Position numbers and translations under genes: made by a program. A DNA stretch of 64,000 nt, taken from assembly GCA_000004695.1 (NCBI GenBank), contig CM000153.2, positions 1,024,001 to 1,088,000 on the forward strand, given 5' to 3'. The notes under the pieces are model-generated. The model was not told the DNA's origin, ran no database searches, and was given only the letters and a program-made list of their open reading frames with translations. Positions within the stretch are counted from its first letter, which is position 1; every line of letters begins with the position of its first letter. The stretch is from Dictyostelium discoideum (taxonomy: Eukaryota). This document shows positions 1-46,600 of the stretch, piece after piece.

Positions 1-3322
<3,322 letters not shown>

Positions 3323-3365
3323 CCTATTTAATTTAATTAAATGATAAAAAGTATTAATAAATATA

Positions 3366-3367
<2 letters not shown>

Positions 3368-3459
<92 letters not shown>

Positions 3460-3460
3460 T
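3368..3460. repeat. (TTA)n microsatellite (~93 bp), intergenic between the two minus-strand genes
   Basis: A perfect ttattatta... run. Confidence 0.9.
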
Positions 3461-3473
3461 ATAGTATAGATTA

Positions 3474-4052
3474 TTACATTGATTTATCGTCATTTTTAAA
3501 TTTTTTATCTTTTCTTTTCTTTTTTTTCTCTTTTTTTCTATTTTTTCTTTCATTTTCTTCATTTTCTTCATTTTCTTGTTGTTGTTGTTCTTTTTTATAT
3601 TTCTTTCTATTGTATGTAAAACCACCACTATCATCATCACTACTATCTTGATCACTAGAACTGCTATCATTATCATCATCATCACTATTATCATCACTAC
3701 TACTATCGATGAATGATCTTTTTTTCATTATTATTTTTACTTTATCATTATTTTTTTTTTCTGTTTTTGAATAAAGGGGTGGTGATGAAGAAGGAGGAGG
3801 AGGAGAAGAAAAAGTGTTGTCACTATCTAAATTAAAGAAATCTGAAGCCCTTTTAAGTTGAGTTTTTGATGTAACTGTATCAATAACATTTTCTTGTTTT
3901 TCTTTATAACTTGAATTTGAAAACCATGATGAAGATGGTGTGTTTGTGCTTGTGACCTTTTGGTGTTCCTCTAAATATAGATCATCACCATCACCATCAC
4001 CATCATCATCGTTTGAATATGCTGCAAAAAGTGATTTTTTTGAATGTGACAT
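3474..4052 (-). CDS. Hypothetical small Ser/Asp-rich protein with basic C-terminus (192 aa)
   Basis: Track ORF 3474..4052 (MSHSKKSLFAAYSNDDDGDGDGDD...KKEKKKKRKDKKFKNDDKSM); the ATG is preceded by an AT-rich homopolymer region and there is no obvious splice signal. The composition is coding-like but low complexity, so it could be spurious. Confidence 0.4.
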   Translation of the reverse strand: MSHSKKSLFAAYSNDDDGDGDGDDLYLEEHQKVTSTNTPSSSWFSNSSYKEKQENVIDTVTSKTQLKRASDFFNLDSDNTFSSPPPPSSSPPLYSKTEKKNNDKVKIIMKKRSFIDSSSDDNSDDDDNDSSSSDQDSSDDDSGGFTYNRKKYKKEQQQQENEENEENERKNRKKEKKKKRKDKKFKNDDKSM

Positions 4053-4203
4053 CTACATTTAAAAATAAAATTATAAATAAATTTAAAGTTTATAAAGCAA
4101 TGATTTGGGGAGCTGTTATTAAGTCACTTTAAAGAAAATTAAAAAATAAAAATTTTTTATTTTTAAAAAAAAAGAGGGGTACCCCCAAAAAAAAAAAAAA
4201 AAA

Positions 4204-4252
<49 letters not shown>

Positions 4253-4581
4253 ATTTAGATACTTTTTTGACCATGTGTAAATCTAGCAATTATTTTTTTA
4301 TGAACTTCATTTCCAATAAATAAAAATGATAATAAAAAAAAAAAAAAAATAAAAAAAAATAAAATTAAATAAAATATACCTATCAGTGGATAATTTAATT
4401 CTGAAAAAGAACCGGTTATTCGGGAAAAGTTAAATCTATAGATTATAATTGAAAATATTTTCATATTATTTACTTTTTAATTTTATTATTCATTCACAAT
4501 TAAAATAAAATATGTATTAAAAAAATAAATAAAATAAAAATTATGGTTTAAAAAAAATCAGAAATATTTTGGATCGAAACC

Positions 4582-4620
<39 letters not shown>

Positions 4621-5466
4621 AATATAATTGAAAGATTAAAAAAAATAAAATAAAAACAAAAAAGATTTTTATAGATAATCCCAAAAATTATTTTATTTAC
4701 ATTTTATATTATTTTTTTTTTTTTTGATCATTGTTTTTTAGATTTTTTTTTTTTGTCATAATTTTATTGATTTTTTAAACAATATAAAATTTTCTTTTTT
4801 ACCACATTTGTTTTCATAAACACTATAATTTGTTATTTTATAAAATATCTTCTTTTTTTAAAATTTCAAATGCAATTGAGGCAATAAACCAATAATAATT
4901 TAAATAATATTTAAATTTTTTTTTTTTTTTAAAAAATATAAAAAAAGGTAATTAAATTTATTAAAAAACTTCCCTCGGGATATCCAAAATAATGATTTAA
5001 ACAAGTGAAGTAAATAAAATTAAAATTAGTAAATTTTTTTACTAAAATTTAAAATAAAATCCAATAACATTGAAATTGATACTATCTGTTGTAATATAAT
5101 TATGTAATAATTAAATTGTTACAATTATGTTTTATCAAGATATTAAATTATATACAATCTCCCTCACAAACTAAAATAATTTATGTTTATATAATTAGAC
5201 TTTTCTCACCTGGGTGGGAAAAAGCCACGTGGTGAGTTTTTAATGTCGATTGAAAAACTCACAAACATAATTTTAAATCTCAAATATATTGTGTTAATGT
5301 TCAACAACTATCCTTATTTATTTTTAAAAAAAAAAAAAAAAAAAAATATTTATCTCATAATAAAATTATTCTAAAAGTCTAGTTTTTTCCTTTCTCCCCG
5401 AAACAAGAAAAAGAATAAAAATAAACTTGATATTAAAATTTAGGATAAAAAATCTATTGTATAAAT

Positions 5467-5511
<45 letters not shown>

Positions 5512-5583
5512 AAACTTGGAAAATAAAATAAAAATACAACCAAGTTTTAGTTAACTATAATTAAATAATAGAATATCTTAAAA

Positions 5584-7872
5584 ATGGATACATTATCATT
5601 ATTTTTAGGATCAAAGGTAATAATAATAATTAGATTATTATTATTATTATTATTATTATAATTATTATTTTAAAATTAAAACCATATAATATTAATAATA
5701 TTTCTTTTATTTTAGGGTGAAAATAAAAAATTATTTAGCCAACTTTCAAAAATGGTATTAAACTCTGCAATTGATTCAAGAATTCAATACTGTGGTAATG
5801 AACCTTCAATTTTTGAAGATGATTATTTTGAATCTGATAATTTTAAAAAATCAAGTGAATTAATTAAAGAAAATACAAAGTTAATTTGTAATTATATTAA
5901 AGATTCTACTCAATTTTCAAGTTTACGATATCAAGCTCATATGATAGAAGATCCTTTAATTCCAAGTTTTATTGGTACAATTTCAGGCCTTTATTATAAT
6001 ACTAATACATGTACTCCTCAAGTTTCTAATAAATCTTCCTTTATTGAACATGCATTTGCTAGTGACCTATGTTCAATGGTAGGTTATGATACAAGTAAAA
6101 TACCAGATTATTATAATTCAATGAAAACAGTTTCAATAAAAGAAATAATTAAAAGAGAAGTTGAAACTGTATATCCTCATGGTCATAATACTAGTGGTGG
6201 TTCAGTATCAAACATTGAAGCATGTTGGTCAAGTTATTGGGTTAAATTTATTCCAGTTGCAATTAAAAATGCATTATTAAATGAAAATGATTTAATTGAT
6301 TCCAGGGAATTAACAATTACCCTAAATGATTGTAAAACTAATAAACAATTAATTGAATGTACAAATTGGGAATTATCAAATTTAAATGGAGATTTATCAG
6401 TAAAATTACCATATCAAATAAGTTTAGAATGTAATTTACCAATTGAAAATGTTTATGAAATTATTAAAAGATATCATTCGTGTTCATTGGGTGCATATCG
6501 GTTTTTTGTGGATAATCAAATTAATCAACCAATTTATTTAATACCAGCATCAGCTCATTATTGTTTTAAAAAAGCAGTATGTTTGATTGGATTAGGTTCA
6601 ACAAATATAAAATTAATAAAAATTGAACCAAATGGTAGAATAAATATAAATGATGTGAAAATGATTATTAAAAATTGTATTGAGAATCAAATTCCAATTA
6701 TTAATATCATATCGATATTAGGTTCAACCCAAGAGTATGGTGTCGATAATATTGATGAAATAGTTTCAATTAGAAATCAAGTAAGAAGAGACTTGAATTT
6801 TAATTTTGAAATGCATGTAGATGGTGCATTCGGTGGATATTCATTATCATGTATTAGAGATAACTTTCAATTGGAAAATCCATTAGATGATCAATTATTA
6901 TTTCCTAATAATATTGAAAATGAAAATAACAATCAAAATGAAATTGATTCATTTGATCCAGAATTAATAATTAGTAGTTATGTTAAAAAACAATTACATG
7001 CTTGTAAATTTGTAGATTCAATTACATTGGATGGTCATAAATCTGGCTTTTTACCATTTTCAAATAGTACAATTTGTTATAGAAATTCAAAGTATAAAGA
7101 TATTATTACACTCTCTTCTGCTTATATAGATATCTGTAAAAAGAATATTCCAAACTGTGGCGTGTTTGGTATTGAAGGTTCTCGTCCAGGTTATTCTTCA
7201 ATCGCAGGTTATTTAACTCATTCAATAATTCGTCCTTCGAAAATTGGATATGGTAAAATTTTAAAAAGATGTATTTTTAATGCAAAATTATTTTATATAT
7301 CCTTGTTAATTAAATTCGATGGTAATAATGGTAATAATATAAAAGTGTTTACAGTTGGTAATAATCCATCAAGTGATGTTTTAAATTATTTAAAAACAGA
7401 AATAATCGATTCGAATACTGGTAAAATCAAATCATTAGATCAAATTGTATCAAATAAAACATTATTACAAATTTTATCAAATTATGGAGCAGATTTAAAC
7501 GGTGTTTGTTTTGGTTTTAATTTTATTTCACCTTCAACTGGCGAATTAAATAATGATTATCAAAAATATGTAGAACTTAATAAAATGATAATTGATAGAT
7601 TCGATTATTCAAGAGGACCTGAAGCAGATTTGATATTTGGAAATACATTTTTAAATAATAGTTATGGTAATGAATTTATTTCAAATTTCCTTGAAACAAA
7701 TGAATTAAAAATTAATATCCCTATCTATAATAAAATCAAAATTCCAATACTAAGGTCATCAACTATGTCACCTTTTATTAGTGAAACATCTGAAGGTTCA
7801 TATATTGATATTATGCTTTACCTATTATTAAAAGAAATTACAGGTTTTTTATTTTCAATTGATAAATTATAA
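5584..7872 (+). CDS. PLP-dependent group II (DDC/GAD/TyrDC-type) decarboxylase-like protein, paralog A; join(5584..5616,5716..7872), about 729 aa
   Basis: Exon 1 is ATGGATACATTATCATTATTTTTAGGATCAAAG (MDTLSLFLGSK), followed by a GTAATA donor at 5617. The 99-nt AT-rich intron ends in TTTTAG at 5715. Exon 2 (GENKKLFSQLSKMVLNS...) is in frame with track ORF 5752..7872. Motifs present: HGHNTSGGSVSNIEA (TSGGSxSN), HVDGAFGGY and SITLDGHKSGF (the S-x-x-x-D-x-HK PLP-lysine motif). Confidence 0.8.
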
Positions 7873-36449: not shown

Positions 36450-38283
36450 ATGGACACATTTACAATTGAAGAAATAGTGAAATTTGATGGTGGTGGTGGT
36501 GGTATATCAACAATTAATAGTAATAATGACAATATTGGTATACCAAGTAATACCTTTGAAATGATAATATCAACTATTCAACACTTTTTAGATAGATCAT
36601 CATCAGTAGCATCAACGATTGCAGTATTTGTATTATCATTTATATTATTTTTTATGTTTGGTTGGTTTTATTTCTTAAAGATATTATTTAGAGATTATGA
36701 AGTTAAAAAAGTTTTTGTTCAATTATCATTCTCAATTACTTTTGCATTATCATTAACATTATTTGAACTTATTTTCTTTGAAATTATGGATTTTATGGAT
36801 AGAGAGTAAATTTTTTTTTAAAAATCACATAAAAAAAAATATATTTATATTAATTTTATTAATTTTTTTTTTTTTTTATTTTTTTTTTTTTTAAAAAAAA
36901 AAAAGATGGAGATATAGATTTTGGGAATTTGATTTAACATTAATGTCAATTAATTTAATTTTAGTATTACCATATTATCAATTTTATTTATTAGTTTTAG
37001 CATATGGATTTAGTAAGAGGAAAACATTATTTTTTAGTTTAGTACTATTGGTATTATATTTAATTTTATTTTGGAAGATTGGTGATCCATTCCCTATTCT
37101 AAAGGAATATACAGGTTTAGTTTCTTTAGAAATGGGTATTGGTAGAATTGGTATTGTAGGTTGTACTGTAATGTCATTACTATCGGGCTATGGTGCAGTT
37201 TATGTACCTTATAGTTATATCACTTATTTTTTAAAACCTGTAAAAGATGTTACAATTACAAAATTAGAAAAACAATTCAATCATGCTTTAGATAAAATTT
37301 TTAATAAAAAAAAAAGAGTTGTATTATTAAAACGAGAATTAACAAGAAGAAATGTAAATAATAATAATAATAATAATAATAATTATGATACATATAATTA
37401 TAATAACAATTATAATAATAATAGTAATAATAATAATAATAATAATAATAGTAATAATAATAATAATAATAATTTACCAATTATTGGGCCAATATTTTCA
37501 AAAATTTATAATTTATGGAATGTTGGATATCATCATCAATTAAGTAGACCAATTGATGATATTAAACAATTGGAACGAGAAATTAAACAATTAGAAGATT
37601 TAAATCGTGACTTATTCACTCAAATACACGAGTTAAAATTAGAGAGATTAAGAATCCAATTCTCAACAACGCTTCGTGGTAAATTTTATAATTGGTTAGG
37701 TTACTTCTTTTCAATTTATTGTATATATAAAGTAATAATGGTAAGTAGTATATTAACTAAATTGATTATATGTGTATATTAAAAATGTAAATATTTACTA
37801 ACTATTGGAGGGAAAAAAAAGAGTGCATTAAATATAGTTTTCGATAGAAGAGGTGGTATGGATCCAGTTACAAGAGGATTGGATATTGCTTTAAGATATT
37901 TTCATTTTCAAGTTGATGTAACATTTTGGTCTCAACATATATCATTCATTTTGGTTGGTTTAATGACAGCTTCAAGTATTCGTGGTTTTTTAAATCAAAT
38001 TTTAAAGGTATTTCATGAATATTCCAGTAGTTTATCTTCAAATAATATAGTTTTAATATTGGCTCAAGTAATGGGAATGTATTTCATTTCATCAGTTTTA
38101 ATGATGAGAACATCTATGCCTGAAATTTATACAAGATTTATAGTCACTCAGATATTGGGTGATATAGAATTCAGTTTCTATCATCGTTGGTTTGACTTTA
38201 TTTTTATACCAAGTGCAATTATCACAACATTAGCATTGATATTCATGTCTAAATCAAGTACTTTCCACTTAAATGATGAATAA
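36450..38283 (+). CDS. Golgi pH regulator / GPR89 (GPHR, GTG family) multi-pass membrane protein; join(36450..36805,36906..37740,37822..38283), about 550 aa
   Basis: Three track ORFs join through GTAAAT (36806) and GTAAGT (37741) donors and acceptors at 36904..36905 and 37820..37821. Similarity to human GPR89A is strong: FGWFYFLKILFRDYE vs FGWLFFMRQLFKDYE; RYRFWEFDLTLMSINLILVLPYY vs RYFHWKMNLCVILLILVFMVPFY; WKIGDPFPIL; YKVIM|SALNIVFDRRGGMDPVTRGLDIA vs WKIFMATINIVFDRVGKTDPVTRGIEIT; FWSQHISFILVG. A poly-Asn loop insertion is encoded at 37360-37470. Confidence 0.85.
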
Positions 38284-38603: not shown

Positions 38604-38763
38604 ATGTCAGAGGATAAATCAGGATCATTTTACTCAATGTATAAATTATGTGGTCAACTTGAGAAAGAGTCATCACATTCTGGTAAAACACAATTGATAA
38701 AATCATTTTGTAATGTTTTTAAGTATGTTGATTAAAATTATATTTTTATTAATTTAATAATTG

Positions 38764-38802
<39 letters not shown>

Positions 38803-41800
38803 TAACTATTTATTATTATTATTTTTATAAAATAAAAAAAAAAAAAAAAGAGGGGATTTATATCTATTAGCAAAATTAATGTTATGTAAAGAAGATAAAA
38901 GAGTATTTAGAATAAAAGATAAGGCAATGTTAAAAATTTGTTCACATATTTGGGATTGTGATTTAGATGATATGATTGAAGATTTAGATAATGGTGATTT
39001 CACTGAAACTTGTAAAAAAGTAAAATACTTTCAATTCTTTTTTAAAATTTTTTTAAATTTATTTTTTAAATATATTAATATTAATATTTTTTTTTATTTT
39101 TTTTTTTAGTTTTATATAGAATATGGTAAATATCCAGAAAAAAGTACATTAACATTAAAAGAAGTTGACCAAGTATTGGATTCTTTAACAGTATCAGGTA
39201 AATTTGAAGATCAAGTAAAAATTATAAATAAATTATTGAAAAGATGTACACCATTCGATTTTAGATTAGTTTGTAGAATTATTGATAGTGATTTAAAAAT
39301 AAATACTGGTGCAAAATTCTTTTTAGATGCATTTCACCCCCAAGCATATGATGCATTTAAAAAAGCAAATAATTTAAAAGGTGTAATTGAAAAAATTCAA
39401 CAACATGATTTTGATAATGATAATGGTGATGGCGATGATGGTGATGGTGATGACAATGATGATGATGATGGTGATGGTGATAGTGATAGTGATAAAAAAA
39501 AGAAAAAATCAAGTGGTGGTAGTGGTAGTGATAGTGGTAGTAAGAAAAAAAGCAAATCATTTGAAGTTGCAATTAAATTAATGACACCAATTAAACCAAT
39601 GTTACCAAAAGCAGTTAAAACTGTTGAAGGTGTTGTAAAGAGTAGTGAATGCTTTTATGCAGAGATTAAATATGATGGTGAACGTATTCAAATTCATAAG
39701 GATGGTAATCAGTTTAGTTGTTATTCTCGTAATCTTAAACCATTAATGCCATGGAAAGTGGATGAAGTTAAACCATATATTCCAAAATCAACCAAAGCTC
39801 AACAGATGATATTAGATGGTGAAATACTTTTAATGGATACTAAAACCAGCCAACCTTTGCCATTTGGTACATTAAGTGCCCATAAAAAGAATGGGTTCAA
39901 AGATGCAACGGTTTGTGTGTTCCTATTCGATATTCTATATCTAAATGGTAAGTCATTGATTCATTTACCACTTAAAGAGAGAAGAGAAATCTTGGAAAAG
40001 AATGTAATGGTGGTTAAAAATCGTATTGAGTTCTCTGAGGTGACAATTGTTAATGGTGCCTCTGAGAAATCAAAATTGACGGCATTGTTGAACAGAGTAT
40101 TTAAAGAGAAACTTGAGGGTTTGGTAATCAAAGATGCAATGTCAGAATATGAGCCAGGTTGTAGACATTGGATAAAAATTAAAAAGGATTACATTCACGG
40201 TATGGCTGATAGTGCAGATTTAATTGCAGTTGGCGGTTACTATGGTTCTGGTTCGATGGGTGGTTTGGTAACGGTTTTTTTGATGGTATGTTATGATAAA
40301 CAAAATAAAATCTATAAAACAGTGGTCAAAGCAAGTGGTGGTTTGGATGATAATATGATTGCCAAACTTCAACCAAAAGTCACAAGTACAATGACAAAAA
40401 TTTCAAAAGAAGTTTCAAAGATTCCTTATTGGTTAGATTGTCCAAAGCAATATGCGCCAGATTTCATTGTAAAAGATATTAAACAAGCTATGATATTTGA
40501 AATTGAGTCAGCTGAATTCACTAAAAGTGATCATCATACCACTGGTTATTCAATGCGTTTCCCACGTATTCTCAAAATTAGACATGACAAAGATTATAAA
40601 ACTGCAACAACCCTTGAAGAATTGGTTGAAATTGGTAAAGATATTAAAATTGTTCCAGTTGGTAAAGGTGATAATAATTCACCAACAACTACTACTACAA
40701 CAACTACTACAACAACAACAACTACTTCATCAAAATTAATTAAAAAACAACAATTATCAGATGATGATGATGATAATGATAAAGACTCTAAACAGCAACA
40801 ACAAGAACCATCAAAATTAAAATTTGTTAGTGATGATTTATTAGATCCATTTAATGACAAGTCAGATGATGAATCAAATAAAATATTTATATTGAATTAT
40901 GTTGATAATTCAGGTATTTGGAATGAAAAGGGCTTATCAGGTGCAATTGGTAAGAAATGGCCATCAATCCCAAAATCATTTTCTCAAGGTGATTCAAACA
41001 TTATAAAGAGTGGTGAAATTCGTGTTGAAAAGGTAAAAGATGATTCAATATCAACAAATAAAAAAGTTTTTATTTGTAATCTTTCTTGTATTATCCCACC
41101 AAAATCTAAAAAAGAATCTTATACTTTCTCATTAAAAGAATTTAAATCTGCAATTAAAGAAGCAAAAGGTGCGATCAATCAAAAAAAAGCTTCAGTTCAT
41201 TTAGCAAAACCACAATTCACTTCACCATCTTGGTCTGAACTTGATGAAGTACTAACAAAAGAATTATATAATAGTGGTATTAAAGTATTTGTACATTCAA
41301 TTTCAAAATCATCACCAACTACAACATCACCAACTACAACTTCACCAACTACAACATCACCAAAAATAACATCACCATCATCATCATCATCACCTTCAAA
41401 TAAATTAAGCCCATTAAAAAGAGGAAGAGATGAAAAATTAGAACATGAAATCATTAAAGATATTGAACCATCTTTACCAATATTTGAGGATGTTAATGCT
41501 GTAATTGATAGTAAAACCATTGACCAAGTTGATGTAAAGAGATTAATAAATTCAATTAAAACTATGGGTGGTCGTGTATCAGATAAATGGCAACAAGTTG
41601 GTATTGGGAAAACAACCCATTTAATTTGCAATGGTATGAGCGATCTTTATTTACATGTCGATCGTTTAGGTGGTACAATTGTTTTACCAAATTGGGTTGA
41701 TCAATGTTTTGGTTCAGATAAATTATTACCATTACATGAGGATTATATTTATTTCAATAAAAAAGATCATCCAGATTATTCACAATCATCATCATCATCC

Positions 41801-42349
41801 TCAATGTCAATTGAAGAAGAGAAAATAGTAGTAACTACCACCTCTGATGATCCATCAGAGGGTAATCAACAACAACAGGATAAAAAGGTTATAAAAGAAT
41901 CAAAAATAATTCAATCAAAAGATCATTCTTCAACAACTACTATTGATACAAAAATAACAATTACTTCAACCAATAATAATAATAATGGTAACGATAACAA
42001 CAAAACTAGAAAGAAACAACATCTTTTATCAATTTTCCAAGAATGTATTATATTTTTACATGATAATGTAAATGATAGAGAAACTTTAAAAAGATATATC
42101 ATTGCTTATGGTGGTGATATTTCTGATTCAGTCAATGATAAAACTACTCATTTAGTTGCTTCTCTACCAAATAATTTTTCAAACGTAAAACCAAAAGATC
42201 TTTTTAAATCAATAATTAATAATAATAGTAAAAATAATAATAATAATAATAATAACAATAATAATGGTATAATTGTAAATTCTTTGTGGTTATGGGATTC
42301 AATAAATATGAGTGATCTTTTAGATGTAAAAAATTATAAACTTTTCTAA
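38604..42349 (+). CDS. lig3: ATP-dependent DNA ligase III-like (N-terminal DNA-binding domain, adenylation/OB core, internal and C-terminal BRCT, plus a macro-like insert); join(38604..38722,38851..39019,39110..42349), about 1175 aa
   Basis: Exon 1 (MSEDKSGSFYSMYKLCGQLEKESSHSGKTQLIKSFCNVFK) ends with a GTATGT donor at 38723. Exon 2 (GDLYLLAKLMLCKEDKRVFRIKDKAMLKICSHIW..) ends with a GTAAAA donor at 39020 and is followed by acceptor ttttag at 39109. Exon 3 contains the track ORF from 39176. The active-site lysine motif is EIKYDGERIQIHK (Lig3-type KYDGER), and there are two BRCT-like segments (~41500-41760 and the C-terminal ~90 aa). A Gly/Asp-rich (GDGDD)n insert lies at 39420-39490, and (ACAACT)n poly-Thr runs are present. 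Confidence 0.85.
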
Positions 42350-42870: not shown

Positions 42871-43056
42871 ATGGTAATGATGGAAGGAGTTACCCCACCC
42901 CCAACAGCAAAAGTAATACCATTTTCATTAAAAAAAAAGAAGCCTGCTGCCTTAGTACCAACTACGGCAACTGTGGCAACAACAACAACAACAACAACAA
43001 CAAATTCAACTACGAATCAAAATTCAAATGATAATACACCAGTTGTAATCGAAACA

Positions 43057-43096
<40 letters not shown>

Positions 43097-43238
43097 TTAA
43101 TAATACAACAGAAACTATAGCAACAACCACAGAAACAACAGAAACAACAGCAACAATAGAAAATGATTCACCGACAATTTCATCAGAGAAAATTAAAACA
43201 TCAACTATGGAACCAATAAATCCTGCATCAATAATTTC

Positions 43239-43323
<85 letters not shown>

Positions 43324-43607
43324 AATAATGATACAATAATGAAAAATATTGAAGACGAGGAAGAGGATTTATATACAGATATTACATTTGTTAGTGGACC
43401 TTCTACGAATGTCGAGGCTGAAGATGAACAAGAGGAAGTAGAAAAACAACCACAACAAACACAACCACAACAACAACAACAACAAAGATTGGATATAAAT
43501 AAAAAAACCGATACGAATATAAATGGTGTTATACAAATGGATACAGATTCGAAATCATTGTCGTCATCATCATCATCATCATCTAGATATCAAAAAACAC
43601 CAAAAAA

Positions 43608-43638
<31 letters not shown>

Positions 43639-46600
43639 TCAATAAATAATAAAGCGAACAATGAAGCATTTTTTGATAAAGATTCATTTAAAATAAAACT
43701 ACAGGTTATTAATCCAGAATCATATTCAGAGGAGGAAATTCAAGATATTAATTTAAATTCAGTTACATCTGAAGTTTATATGAATCCAACAACGTTAGGT
43801 GATAAATTACAGCAGCATCAACAACAGCAACATCAAAAACAACAACAAAAACAAAAAAATAAAAATACCACCACCTCCAATAATAATAATAAAAATAAAA
43901 ATAATAATAAAAATCATCATGATCATGCTGGTAGTAAAGATCAAATTAATTCATTAGAGGATGAAAAGAGGTATACACAAAGATATAGATATTTAAAGAG
44001 TAATGAAGAGATATTAAATAAACCAGTTTTTAAAGAGATTGAAGAGAGTCCAATGGCTCCATATAATAAGCCGTCTGGGTATATCATTTACCAAGAGAAA
44101 TCAAGTGAAATGTTACATGATGAGGTTGAATATGATATGGATAGTGAGGATGAAAAATGGTTAGAAGAATTTAATAAAACTACCAATAATAATTATTCTG
44201 AAGATATTTTTGAATATGTTATTGATCGTTTAGAGAAAGAAACTTTTAAATATGTATGTAAACACTTAAATATATATATATATTATATTATTAGGTTTGT
44301 TTATTTTATACTAATATCATTCATTCATTTATTTGTTTATGTAGAAACAAGAGATTGGAAGTGATATGTTTCCACATTTTAGTTCAGTTGAAGCAGATGA
44401 TGTTTGTGGTGTTTGTTTTGATGGTACATCTGATGATACAAATCAAATTGTATATTGTGATGGTTGTGATATAGCAGTGCACCAAGATTGTTATGGTATA
44501 CTATTGATCCCCGAAGGTCATTGGTTTTGTCAAAAATGTGAATCACCAGATAAAGATTCAATTTCATGTGTTTTATGTTTTAAAAAGAATGGTTCTTTCA
44601 AACAAACTATCGATGGTGAATGGGTTCATTTGGTTTGTGCCTATAATATACCAGAACTATCTCAAATTATAAGTAAGTTAAAAAAAAAAAAATAATAAAC
44701 AAAAAAATATTATAATTATCATTATTACGAAATACTAATTATTAATATTATTTTCTATACAAAAAAGAAAAAGGTAGTGGTAGAGAAAAACTTGGTCCCC
44801 CAGGACTACTTAGTAATATTTTAAAGAAAAGAAAGAAATTAAAATGTATTATATGTAAAAAAATAGGTGGTGCTTGCATTCAGTGTCGTGAAAGACATTG
44901 TTCTGTGGCATTTCACCCTTATTGTATAAAAATGAATCAAAAATCAATGATTGATGAAAACTTAAATCCTCATATAATATTTTGTAAAAAACATGTAAGT
45001 ATATATATGATGGTATTACTTTTAATAAAAAAAATAATTAATTTTTTTTTATTTATTTTAGTTTTTAAGAAATAATAATATAAATGGAAATGTTAAAGAT
45101 ATTTTAGATGATGATGGTAGTAGTAGTGATGGTAGTGAAAAAGAAAATAGTAGTGACGATGATGATTATACAGATAGTAGTGATGAACATGATATATCTG
45201 GTGATGATGATAATGATGATGATGATAATGATGACGATAGTTTCGAGGTAATTAAAACGCCCTCTAAAAAATCTCATATTTCAAATAAATCTTCAAAATC
45301 TACACCATCTAAATCTAATACGAATTTAAAATCAAAACCACAACCACCAAAACCAAAGTTAAAATCAAAATCAAAATCTACACCATCTAAAAAAAAGGCA
45401 AATCATAAAAAGAAAAAAAAAAAAATTGATTCAACTGATGAAGATGAAGATAGCAATAATGAAAAAGAGGATGAGAATGAAGAAGATGAAGATGAAGAAG
45501 ATAGCGAAGAAGAAGAAGAAGAGGAAGAGGAAGAGAAAGAAGAAAAAGAAAAAATAAATAATAAAAATAAAAAGAGAAATAATAAAAATAATAAAAATAA
45601 TAATATTATTATTGATGGTAGAAAAAAGAAGAAATTAAAAACAACAGATAGTAATAATAATAAAGTGGCTACTGTCACAGCAAAAGATACAACAACTACA
45701 ACAACTACAACTACAACAACAACAACTACTACATCAACAACTACTACAGGTATTACAGCAAAGAAAGTAGGTTTAATATCATCATCAAGAGCAGCAAAAG
45801 TAATTAGAAAAGTTCCAAGTACATTTGTTCATGCAGTTTATGATTATTGGGTAAAGAAAAGGATATCAAGAAGTGGTTTAGCATTAATTAAAAGATTCCA
45901 ACCATCGATTCTATTTAGTTTGAGATCAACATTACATGCAAAAGATCCAGGTATTAATTCAGTTTCAGATTATAATAAAATGTTATCAATTCGTGAAGAT
46001 TTGGAAAGAACTAGAACCATCTTGGAGTTGGTAAAGAAAAGAGAGAAACAAAAGAGAGAACTAATTATAAATATACGTAATGAAATCGAGTCTACAATAC
46101 TTAATGATTATTACTTTCTTAGAATGGTTTTAAAGAGTTTGGAATCCATTGAACAATTAAGACCTTTCTATGTACCAGTTTTGGAAGAAGAAGCACCTTC
46201 TTACTTTTTAATCATTAAACAACCAATGTCATTTCAACAAATTAAACAATCTCTAAACACTTATGCCTACGAGAATACTGATGACTTTTGGAAAGATATA
46301 ACTTTGATCTATACAAACGCTCAATTATTTAATTGTTCAAAAACTTCAGTTTATAAAGCCTCTCGTTTACTTCAAGAGATTGCTAATAAACTAGAATCTG
46401 ATTGTCCTCCAAAAGTAACCCCTGAAGAATTGGATGACTTTATAAAGAATATTAAATATCCTTCAAAGAAACTTTTAACAACTAATCACAAAAAATTTTC
46501 AACACCATTAAAATCAGTATCATCATCAGTATCATCATCATCATCATCATCAAATACAACAAATACACAGTCAACACCAATAAAAACTACTCCAACTGAA

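Follow-up and report, generated by a model that had tools for sequence, protein, structure and literature searches.

A compact ALC1-like macrodomain between the catalytic core and the BRCT domains of Dictyostelium discoideum DNA ligase III

The macrodomain of Dictyostelium DNA ligase III (LIG3) entered the literature in 2016, when Gunn et al. (J Cell Sci, PMC5087659) screened the Dictyostelium proteome using profile hidden Markov models seeded by ADP-ribose-binding macrodomains such as that of ALC1. They describe six macrodomain proteins, three of them previously unannotated and one a DNA ligase III orthologue, and give vertebrate LIG3 as lacking a macrodomain. A 2021 review (PMC8529158) repeats the LIG3 macrodomain as a "proof of concept" for macrodomains as a mark of repair proteins. 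Here we delimit and classify this domain in the D. discoideum lig3 gene, using a window of 64,000 nucleotides of contig CM000153.2 (GCA_000004695.1, positions 1,024,001 to 1,088,000 of the forward strand). A sequence-only reading of this window had proposed a macro-like module inside the ligase; the proposal is correct, but the macrodomain has been known since 2016.

The relatives of the domain have also been classified. Rack et al. assigned ALC1, TARG1, DarG and SCO6735 to a single "ALC1-like" class, characterized by a minimal domain of about five helices that lacks extensions at the N- and C-termini (PMC7050489). What the present analysis adds is incremental: the exact limits of the lig3 domain, its assignment to the ALC1-like class, the equivalents of ALC1 residues D723 and G750, the absence of the catalytic residues of TARG1, the divergence of loop 2, and the occurrence of the same core-macro-BRCT-BRCT order in more distant eukaryotes.

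Limits, fold and class of the macrodomain

The segment under study, FILNYVDNSGIWNEKGLSGAIGKKWP ... KVFVHSI, is encoded at 40886-41302 on the forward strand, inside the third exon of lig3, and corresponds to amino acids 689-827 of the spliced product. Its placement between the ligase core and the BRCT domains stands as first proposed, in that it follows the Pfam families DNA_ligase_A_N, DNA_ligase_A_M and DNA_ligase_A_C (aa 9-590) and precedes two BRCT domains (~aa 887-981 and 1068-1162). The original coordinates, 40885-41305, require adjustment: the peptide is present within them, but their start lies one base out of frame and the domain begins 24 codons earlier, while the residue range of ~570-710 given for the spliced protein was in fact the numbering of the unspliced open reading frame. 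An N-terminally extended alignment (A3) shows a conserved first strand, xYVxGDxTxP, of which the D. discoideum version is KLKFVSDDLLDP (aa 665-676, window 40814-40849). Because this first strand belongs to the domain, the ALC1-like macrodomain is set at aa 665-827 (163 aa; 40814..41302, + strand), after the OB fold and ahead of the first BRCT domain, and the segment noted earlier represents its C-terminal 85%.

Sequence searches connect the segment with ALC1. When compared by phmmer with all PDB sequences, it matched only the human ALC1/CHD1L macrodomain, from one end to the other and with an E-value of 0.014. An exhaustive phmmer search over 1.84 billion representatives yielded seven matches, led by F0ZSY6, the LIG3 orthologue of D. 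purpureum (62% identity, E 2e-50), and otherwise consisting of environmental or metagenomic sequences (P0002, P0003, P0004, P0005 with its cluster mate P0008, P0006 and P0007). A word-indexed homologue search returned nothing for the single segment and only three metagenome fragments for a profile. A profile limited to LIG3-type sequences, so as to avoid any pull from ALC1 orthologues, matched ALC1 at 1.8e-17, BT1257 at 3.8e-15 and SCO6735 at 1.2e-10, and TARG1 at a non-significant 0.31; with a mixed profile TARG1 was matched at 0.0055. With the N-terminally extended profile, ALC1 chain 7otq_K was matched at 4.5e-40 along its residues 701-864, which carry the native numbers 715-878 in 7enn_K, and chain 7enn_K itself (ALC1 715-878) at 6.7e-40.

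Structure prediction agrees with these matches. An AlphaFold2 (AF2) model built from the eight-sequence alignment A1 has a predicted local distance difference test score (pLDDT) of 90.5 and a predicted template modelling score (pTM) of 0.85, and contains four helices of at least four residues together with two short helical turns. Foldseek found 22 PDB matches for this model at E<=1e-3, with SCO6735, BT1257, ALC1 (TMq 0.79) and DarG in the lead, and every one of them is either a macrodomain or an enzyme designed on a macro scaffold. The macro fold put forward by the sequence-only reading is thus borne out by the ALC1 phmmer and profile matches, the AF2 model and the Foldseek matches, and the disorder named there as the contrary outcome did not appear. 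MAFFT likewise reproduced the three motif matches to TARG1 on which the proposal had leaned, aligning the Gly-rich loop with MGAGIAVLFKKKF, the central strand with IYYLIT and the last strand with ITVYTL. We have very little doubt that the segment has a macro fold.

Could the likeness to macrodomains instead have arisen by chance in a disordered or low-complexity spacer? Three observations lean that way. A single-sequence AF2 prediction of the segment was poor (pLDDT 38.6), the surroundings are of low complexity, and Pfam gave no macro family at E<=1 for either the 180-aa segment or the full protein, so that the Macro or Macro_2 match anticipated by the sequence-only reading did not appear. The one Pfam match to the segment, DUF3775 (E 0.19), was judged spurious, and one relative, P0004, matched Pfam Macro with an E-value of 0.065, under threshold. 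The spacer explanation is nevertheless refuted by the alignment-based model, the Foldseek and profile matches and the conservation of the domain in D. purpureum. Between the two species identity is 82% in the DNA-binding domain, 79% in the nucleotidyltransferase and OB folds, 60% in the macrodomain, 48% in the first BRCT and 62% in the last BRCT, compared with 15-34% in the four linkers. The linkers that adjoin the macrodomain reach 29-33%, and the difference between these values and the 60% of the macrodomain indicates that the segment is not disordered filler.

The class of the domain follows from the same searches. Since ALC1 is both the sole phmmer match in the PDB and the top profile match, the lig3 macrodomain falls within the ALC1-like class with ALC1 as its nearest relative by sequence. 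At 163 aa it is bordered directly by low-complexity linkers. The earlier designation "TARG1/OARD1-type" is accordingly right at the level of the ALC1-like class. By sequence ALC1 is nearer, the LIG3-type profile did not detect TARG1 significantly, and the lig3 domain does not keep TARG1 residues K84 and D125.

Ligand-site residues and proposed function

Two residues on which PAR (poly(ADP-ribose)) binding by ALC1 depends have equivalents in lig3. Asp672 (40835..40837, + strand) aligns with ALC1 Asp723, the surrounding sequences being LKYVSGDVTHP at 717-727 in ALC1 and LKFVSDDLLDP at 666-676 in lig3, and mutation D723A abolishes PAR binding by ALC1 (PMC7895907, PMC7708043). Loop 1, VDNSGIWNEKGLSG (40901..40942, + strand), aligns with ALC1 740-753 and includes Gly704 (40931-40933), the counterpart of ALC1 Gly750, whose replacement in G750E gives a PAR-binding-deficient mutant (PMC7895907). 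The Asp, Trp and Gly of loop 1 do not vary in either A1 or A3, and Dictyostelium keeps the D723 and G750 equivalents along with the entire loop 1 motif VDNSGxWxxxG.

A compact ALC1-like macrodomain that reads ADP-ribose or PAR is the best explanation of these data and, in our judgement, probably the right one; with slightly less confidence, we favor a non-catalytic reader whose binding and recruitment functions are predicted from sequence. How would such a domain serve a DNA ligase? The macrodomain would read ADP-ribose, or poly- or oligo(ADP-ribose), made by Dictyostelium ADP-ribosyltransferases at DNA breaks, and this reading would concentrate, and possibly activate, LIG3 at the break sites. 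Vertebrates reach the same end through the PAR-binding protein XRCC1 and the interaction of the LIG3 BRCT domain with XRCC1.

Several observations weigh against a reader function, and the chief doubt concerns loop 2, which in macrodomains normally holds the diphosphate of ADP-ribose. The loop 2 region of lig3, SVHLAKPQFTSPS (41192..41230, + strand), was compared in a MAFFT alignment (A4), and its His does not vary in either A1 or A3. Its stretch LAKPQFTSP-SW is two residues shorter than the corresponding loops of ALC1 (SVHLPRIGHATKGFN), BT1257 (SVHMPRIGCGLAGGK) and TARG1 (LSMPRIGCGLDRLQ) and, compared with them, is Gly-free. A short, Gly-free loop 2 is seen in D. discoideum and D. purpureum alike, and the loop is divergent across LIG3-type sequences. 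The shortening and the loss of Gly could therefore impair the pocket. Moreover, two environmental relatives, P0003 and P0004, do not keep the D723-equivalent Asp (A3). The first strand is absent from the AF2 model, so that pocket geometry is not readable from it; the domain escapes the Pfam macro models; and a literature search found no binding experiment, or other experiment, on the LIG3 macrodomain itself. Finally, the segment described here is almost certainly the macrodomain of Gunn et al. 2016 (PMC5087659), an identity that we infer from having found no other macro-like region in the protein.

Some of these features would suit a degenerate macrodomain, one that has kept the fold, lost ADP-ribose binding, and come to serve for protein-protein interaction or to regulate the ligase intramolecularly. 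A comparable arrangement is offered by the ALC1 macrodomain, which docks on its own ATPase. In favor of degeneration are the short and divergent loop 2, the failure of the Pfam macro models to detect the domain, and the loss of the D723-equivalent Asp in some relatives. On the other hand, Dictyostelium keeps the D723 and G750 equivalents and the VDNSGxWxxxG motif, and the loop 2 of ALC1 is also non-canonical, yet ALC1 binds PAR (PMC7895907, PMC7708043). Degeneration of the domain is, in our view, unlikely, although it is the strongest competitor of the reader function.

A third explanation is that the domain is catalytic, as in TARG1, DarG and SCO6735, and strips ADP-ribose from proteins or DNA ends, thereby clearing the nick for the ligase. 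Alignment A4, in which the TARG1 sequence was checked against PDB 2lgr, bears directly on this proposal. In D. discoideum and D. purpureum, TARG1 Lys84 lies opposite an alignment gap right after Leu (ICNL--SC), while in ALC1, BT1257 and other LIG3-type sequences its position is occupied by Gln; TARG1 Asp125 coincides with the two residues missing from loop 2. Catalysis of the TARG1 type was rejected because neither Lys84 nor Asp125 has a counterpart. An ALC1-like hydrolase can dispense with the TARG1 pair of Lys and acid, as SCO6735 shows (PMC7050489), and this keeps some room for another catalytic mechanism; the nearest relative, ALC1, is described as a PAR binder with no mention of hydrolase activity (PMC7895907, PMC7708043). 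We consider a catalytic domain improbable.

More speculatively, the LIG3 macrodomain might be an end-cleaning enzyme that removes ADP-ribose from DNA termini or nearby proteins before sealing, or else a PAR-gated switch. In the gated version the macrodomain would keep the ligase inactive until PAR binds, by analogy with the ALC1 macrodomain and its ATPase. We give these ideas together little weight, and return to a non-catalytic reader of ADP-ribose or PAR as the preferred explanation.

Gene model, flanking domains and recurrence of the architecture

The window is strongly AT-rich, with a G+C content of 21.7% and Dictyostelium-style homopolymer and codon-repeat tracts. Within it, lig3 occupies 38604..42349 (+ strand), and a single splice combination, 38604-38722 joined to 38851-39019 and 39110-42349, leaves the frame open across three exons and yields a product of 1175 aa. 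The exact 1175-aa product was not found in the protein collection searched, and the identity of the gene was taken instead from published primers. Three lig3 disruption primers of Kolb et al. 2017 (PMC5622368) have exact matches in the window, at 37854, 40791 and 41715; their distances from the lig3 ATG, ~-750, +2187 and +3111, agree with the publication. The exact matches at fitting offsets identify the gene as D. discoideum lig3, which is entered as DDB_G0283857 in PMC8529158.

The design of that knockout touches the macrodomain. Nucleotides 49-2187 of lig3 were replaced and the downstream homology arm spans 2187-3112 (PMC5622368), so that the arm (window 40791-41715) takes in all of the macrodomain and a portion of the first BRCT domain. 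The macrodomain and BRCT coding sequence therefore persists in the genome of the lig3 mutant, which is relevant if residual transcripts matter.

The catalytic core of the ligase, interrupted by two introns, lies at 38628..40591 (+ strand). It comprises a DNA-binding domain (DBD) at aa 9-172 (DNA_ligase_A_N, 9e-32), a nucleotidyltransferase (NTase) domain with the KYDGER motif at aa 259-454 (DNA_ligase_A_M, 3e-55) and an OB fold at aa 481-590 (DNA_ligase_A_C, 2.2e-11). Its best PDB match is human DNA ligase 3 (3l2p, E 3.8e-151), compared with 9e-50 for LIG4 and 9e-41 for LIG1. The protein is DNA ligase III, with a core nearest to LIG3 and a LIG3-type BRCT domain at the C-terminus. The first BRCT domain is found at 41480..41764 (+ strand; ~aa 887-981), where it has a collinear tblastn match in an environmental contig described below, and Pfam BRCT, BRCT_2 and PTCB-BRCT each give two stretches in the protein. 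The C-terminal LIG3-type BRCT domain follows at 42023..42307 (+ strand; aa 1068-1162; LIG3_BRCT 3.3e-14) and carries a poly-Asn insertion, its AAT repeat spanning 42211-42265.

The claim of the sequence-only reading that the protein lacks an N-terminal PARP-type zinc finger is upheld: Pfam zf-PARP has no match in the full 1175-aa protein, and DNA_ligase_A_N begins already at aa 9. An upstream exon that might hide such a finger was considered and rejected, as only ~320 bp of AT-rich sequence separate lig3 from the end, at 38283, of the preceding gene. That gene, directly upstream, encodes a Golgi pH regulator of the ABA_GPCR family (GPHR) in two exons (36943-38283, + strand), and downstream of lig3 lies an Enhancer-of-polycomb-like (EPL1) gene (42871-44364, + strand).

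Low-complexity sequence separates the macrodomain from its neighbors on both sides. The linker between the OB fold and the macrodomain (40652..40813, + strand) is poly-Thr, acidic and Gln-rich, with codon repeats at 40683-40726 encoding a Thr14 run, and shows 29% identity to D. purpureum with 20 gap columns. After the macrodomain comes a Ser/Pro/Thr-rich linker with (SPTTT) repeats (41303..41479, + strand), which contains a tandem 15-nt repeat at 41310-41377 and is 33% identical to that of D. purpureum. This arrangement is best explained by a macrodomain tethered within the ligase by flexible linkers. An Asp/Gly-rich acidic insert with codon repeats at 39412-39493 also lies between the DNA-binding and nucleotidyltransferase domains, and all the codon-repeat tracts of lig3 (39412-39493, 40683-40726, 41310-41377 and 42211-42265) fall in regions weakly conserved relative to D. 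purpureum.

The architecture recurs beyond the two dictyostelids. Environmental contig L001 (ENA ERZ27269047 k141_280260, 33.5% G+C) contains a split, intron-containing LIG3 at 2795-6283 (+ strand) whose order of DBD, NTase, OB, macro, BRCT and BRCT is collinear with that of D. discoideum by tblastn, with identities of 54-58% in the core and 26% in the macrodomain. The start of this gene has no space for a zinc finger, and an upstream zinc-finger exon is unlikely, given that minus-strand genes on the contig end at 2618. Among metagenomic fragments, P0003 and P0011 show an OB fold followed by a macrodomain, P0002 and P0006 show a macrodomain followed by LIG3_BRCT, and P0004 is short and has no domains on either side. 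These environmental ligases could come from other dictyostelids or from other amoebozoans.

The remaining metagenomic matches, P0007 (609 aa) and P0005 with its cluster mate P0008 (654 aa), are fragments of ALC1/CHD1L orthologues, with phmmer E-values against human ALC1 of 3e-84 for P0008 and 5.5e-42 for P0007. In both P0008 and P0007 the macrodomain is followed by one or two BRCT domains, for which LIG3_BRCT is the top Pfam family in P0008 and comes just behind BRCT_2 in P0007. Nothing follows the macrodomain in human ALC1. The pairing of a macrodomain with a LIG3-type BRCT domain, in some eukaryotes, in ALC1-like remodelers as well as in LIG3 hints at shared ancestry or domain exchange, and a speculative reading, in which a macro plus LIG3-type-BRCT cassette was swapped between the two protein families in protists, would fit the environmental ALC1 orthologues.

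Comparison with known macrodomain and ligase systems

The closest described system is the macrodomain of human ALC1/CHD1L (7enn, 7epu, 7otq and 9t4v), to which lig3 aa 665-827 align from end to end over ALC1 715-878. Common to the two are the first strand YVxGDxTxP, the SVHL strand, the last strand and, in loop 1, the motif VDxSGxWxxxG; positions D723 and G750 are kept, and the Foldseek TM score is 0.79. They differ in their hosts, a Snf2 remodeler for ALC1 and a DNA ligase in Dictyostelium, in a sequence identity of only ~20-24%, and in loop 2, which in ALC1 is two residues longer and has Gly. TARG1/OARD1/C6orf130 (2lgr, 4j5r) is more distant, since its sequence similarity is marginal and it is a stand-alone enzyme whose catalytic Lys84 and Asp125 are missing in lig3. 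The ALC1-like bacterial proteins BT1257 (2afc, 2fg1), SCO6735 (5e3b) and DarG (5m3i) are stand-alone or toxin-antitoxin proteins and, unlike lig3, retain a loop 2 of the PRIGCGL type; at least SCO6735 and DarG are hydrolases (PMC7050489). Within Dictyostelium, the macrodomain of APL (rice homologue 5lw0) also belongs to a repair protein from the 2016 screen and, according to Gunn et al. 2016, binds PAR in vitro (PMC5087659).

Vertebrate LIG3 (3l2p) has a core orthologous to that of Dictyostelium LIG3, and both proteins carry a C-terminal LIG3-type BRCT domain. The Dictyostelium protein differs in lacking the N-terminal PARP-type zinc finger and in possessing an internal macrodomain and a second BRCT domain. 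The zinc finger of vertebrate LIG3 is mainly a DNA-nick sensor. For this reason the earlier suggestion that the macrodomain is an alternative solution to the same recruitment problem holds only as a loose analogy. In a broader sense, evolution can solve the ADP-ribose-dependent recruitment of a nick-sealing ligase in different ways, as workers on Dictyostelium DNA repair have pointed out before (Gunn et al. 2016; PMC8529158): in Dictyostelium a probable reader domain is fused into the ligase itself, while vertebrates combine the PAR-binding partner XRCC1 with a nick-sensing zinc finger.

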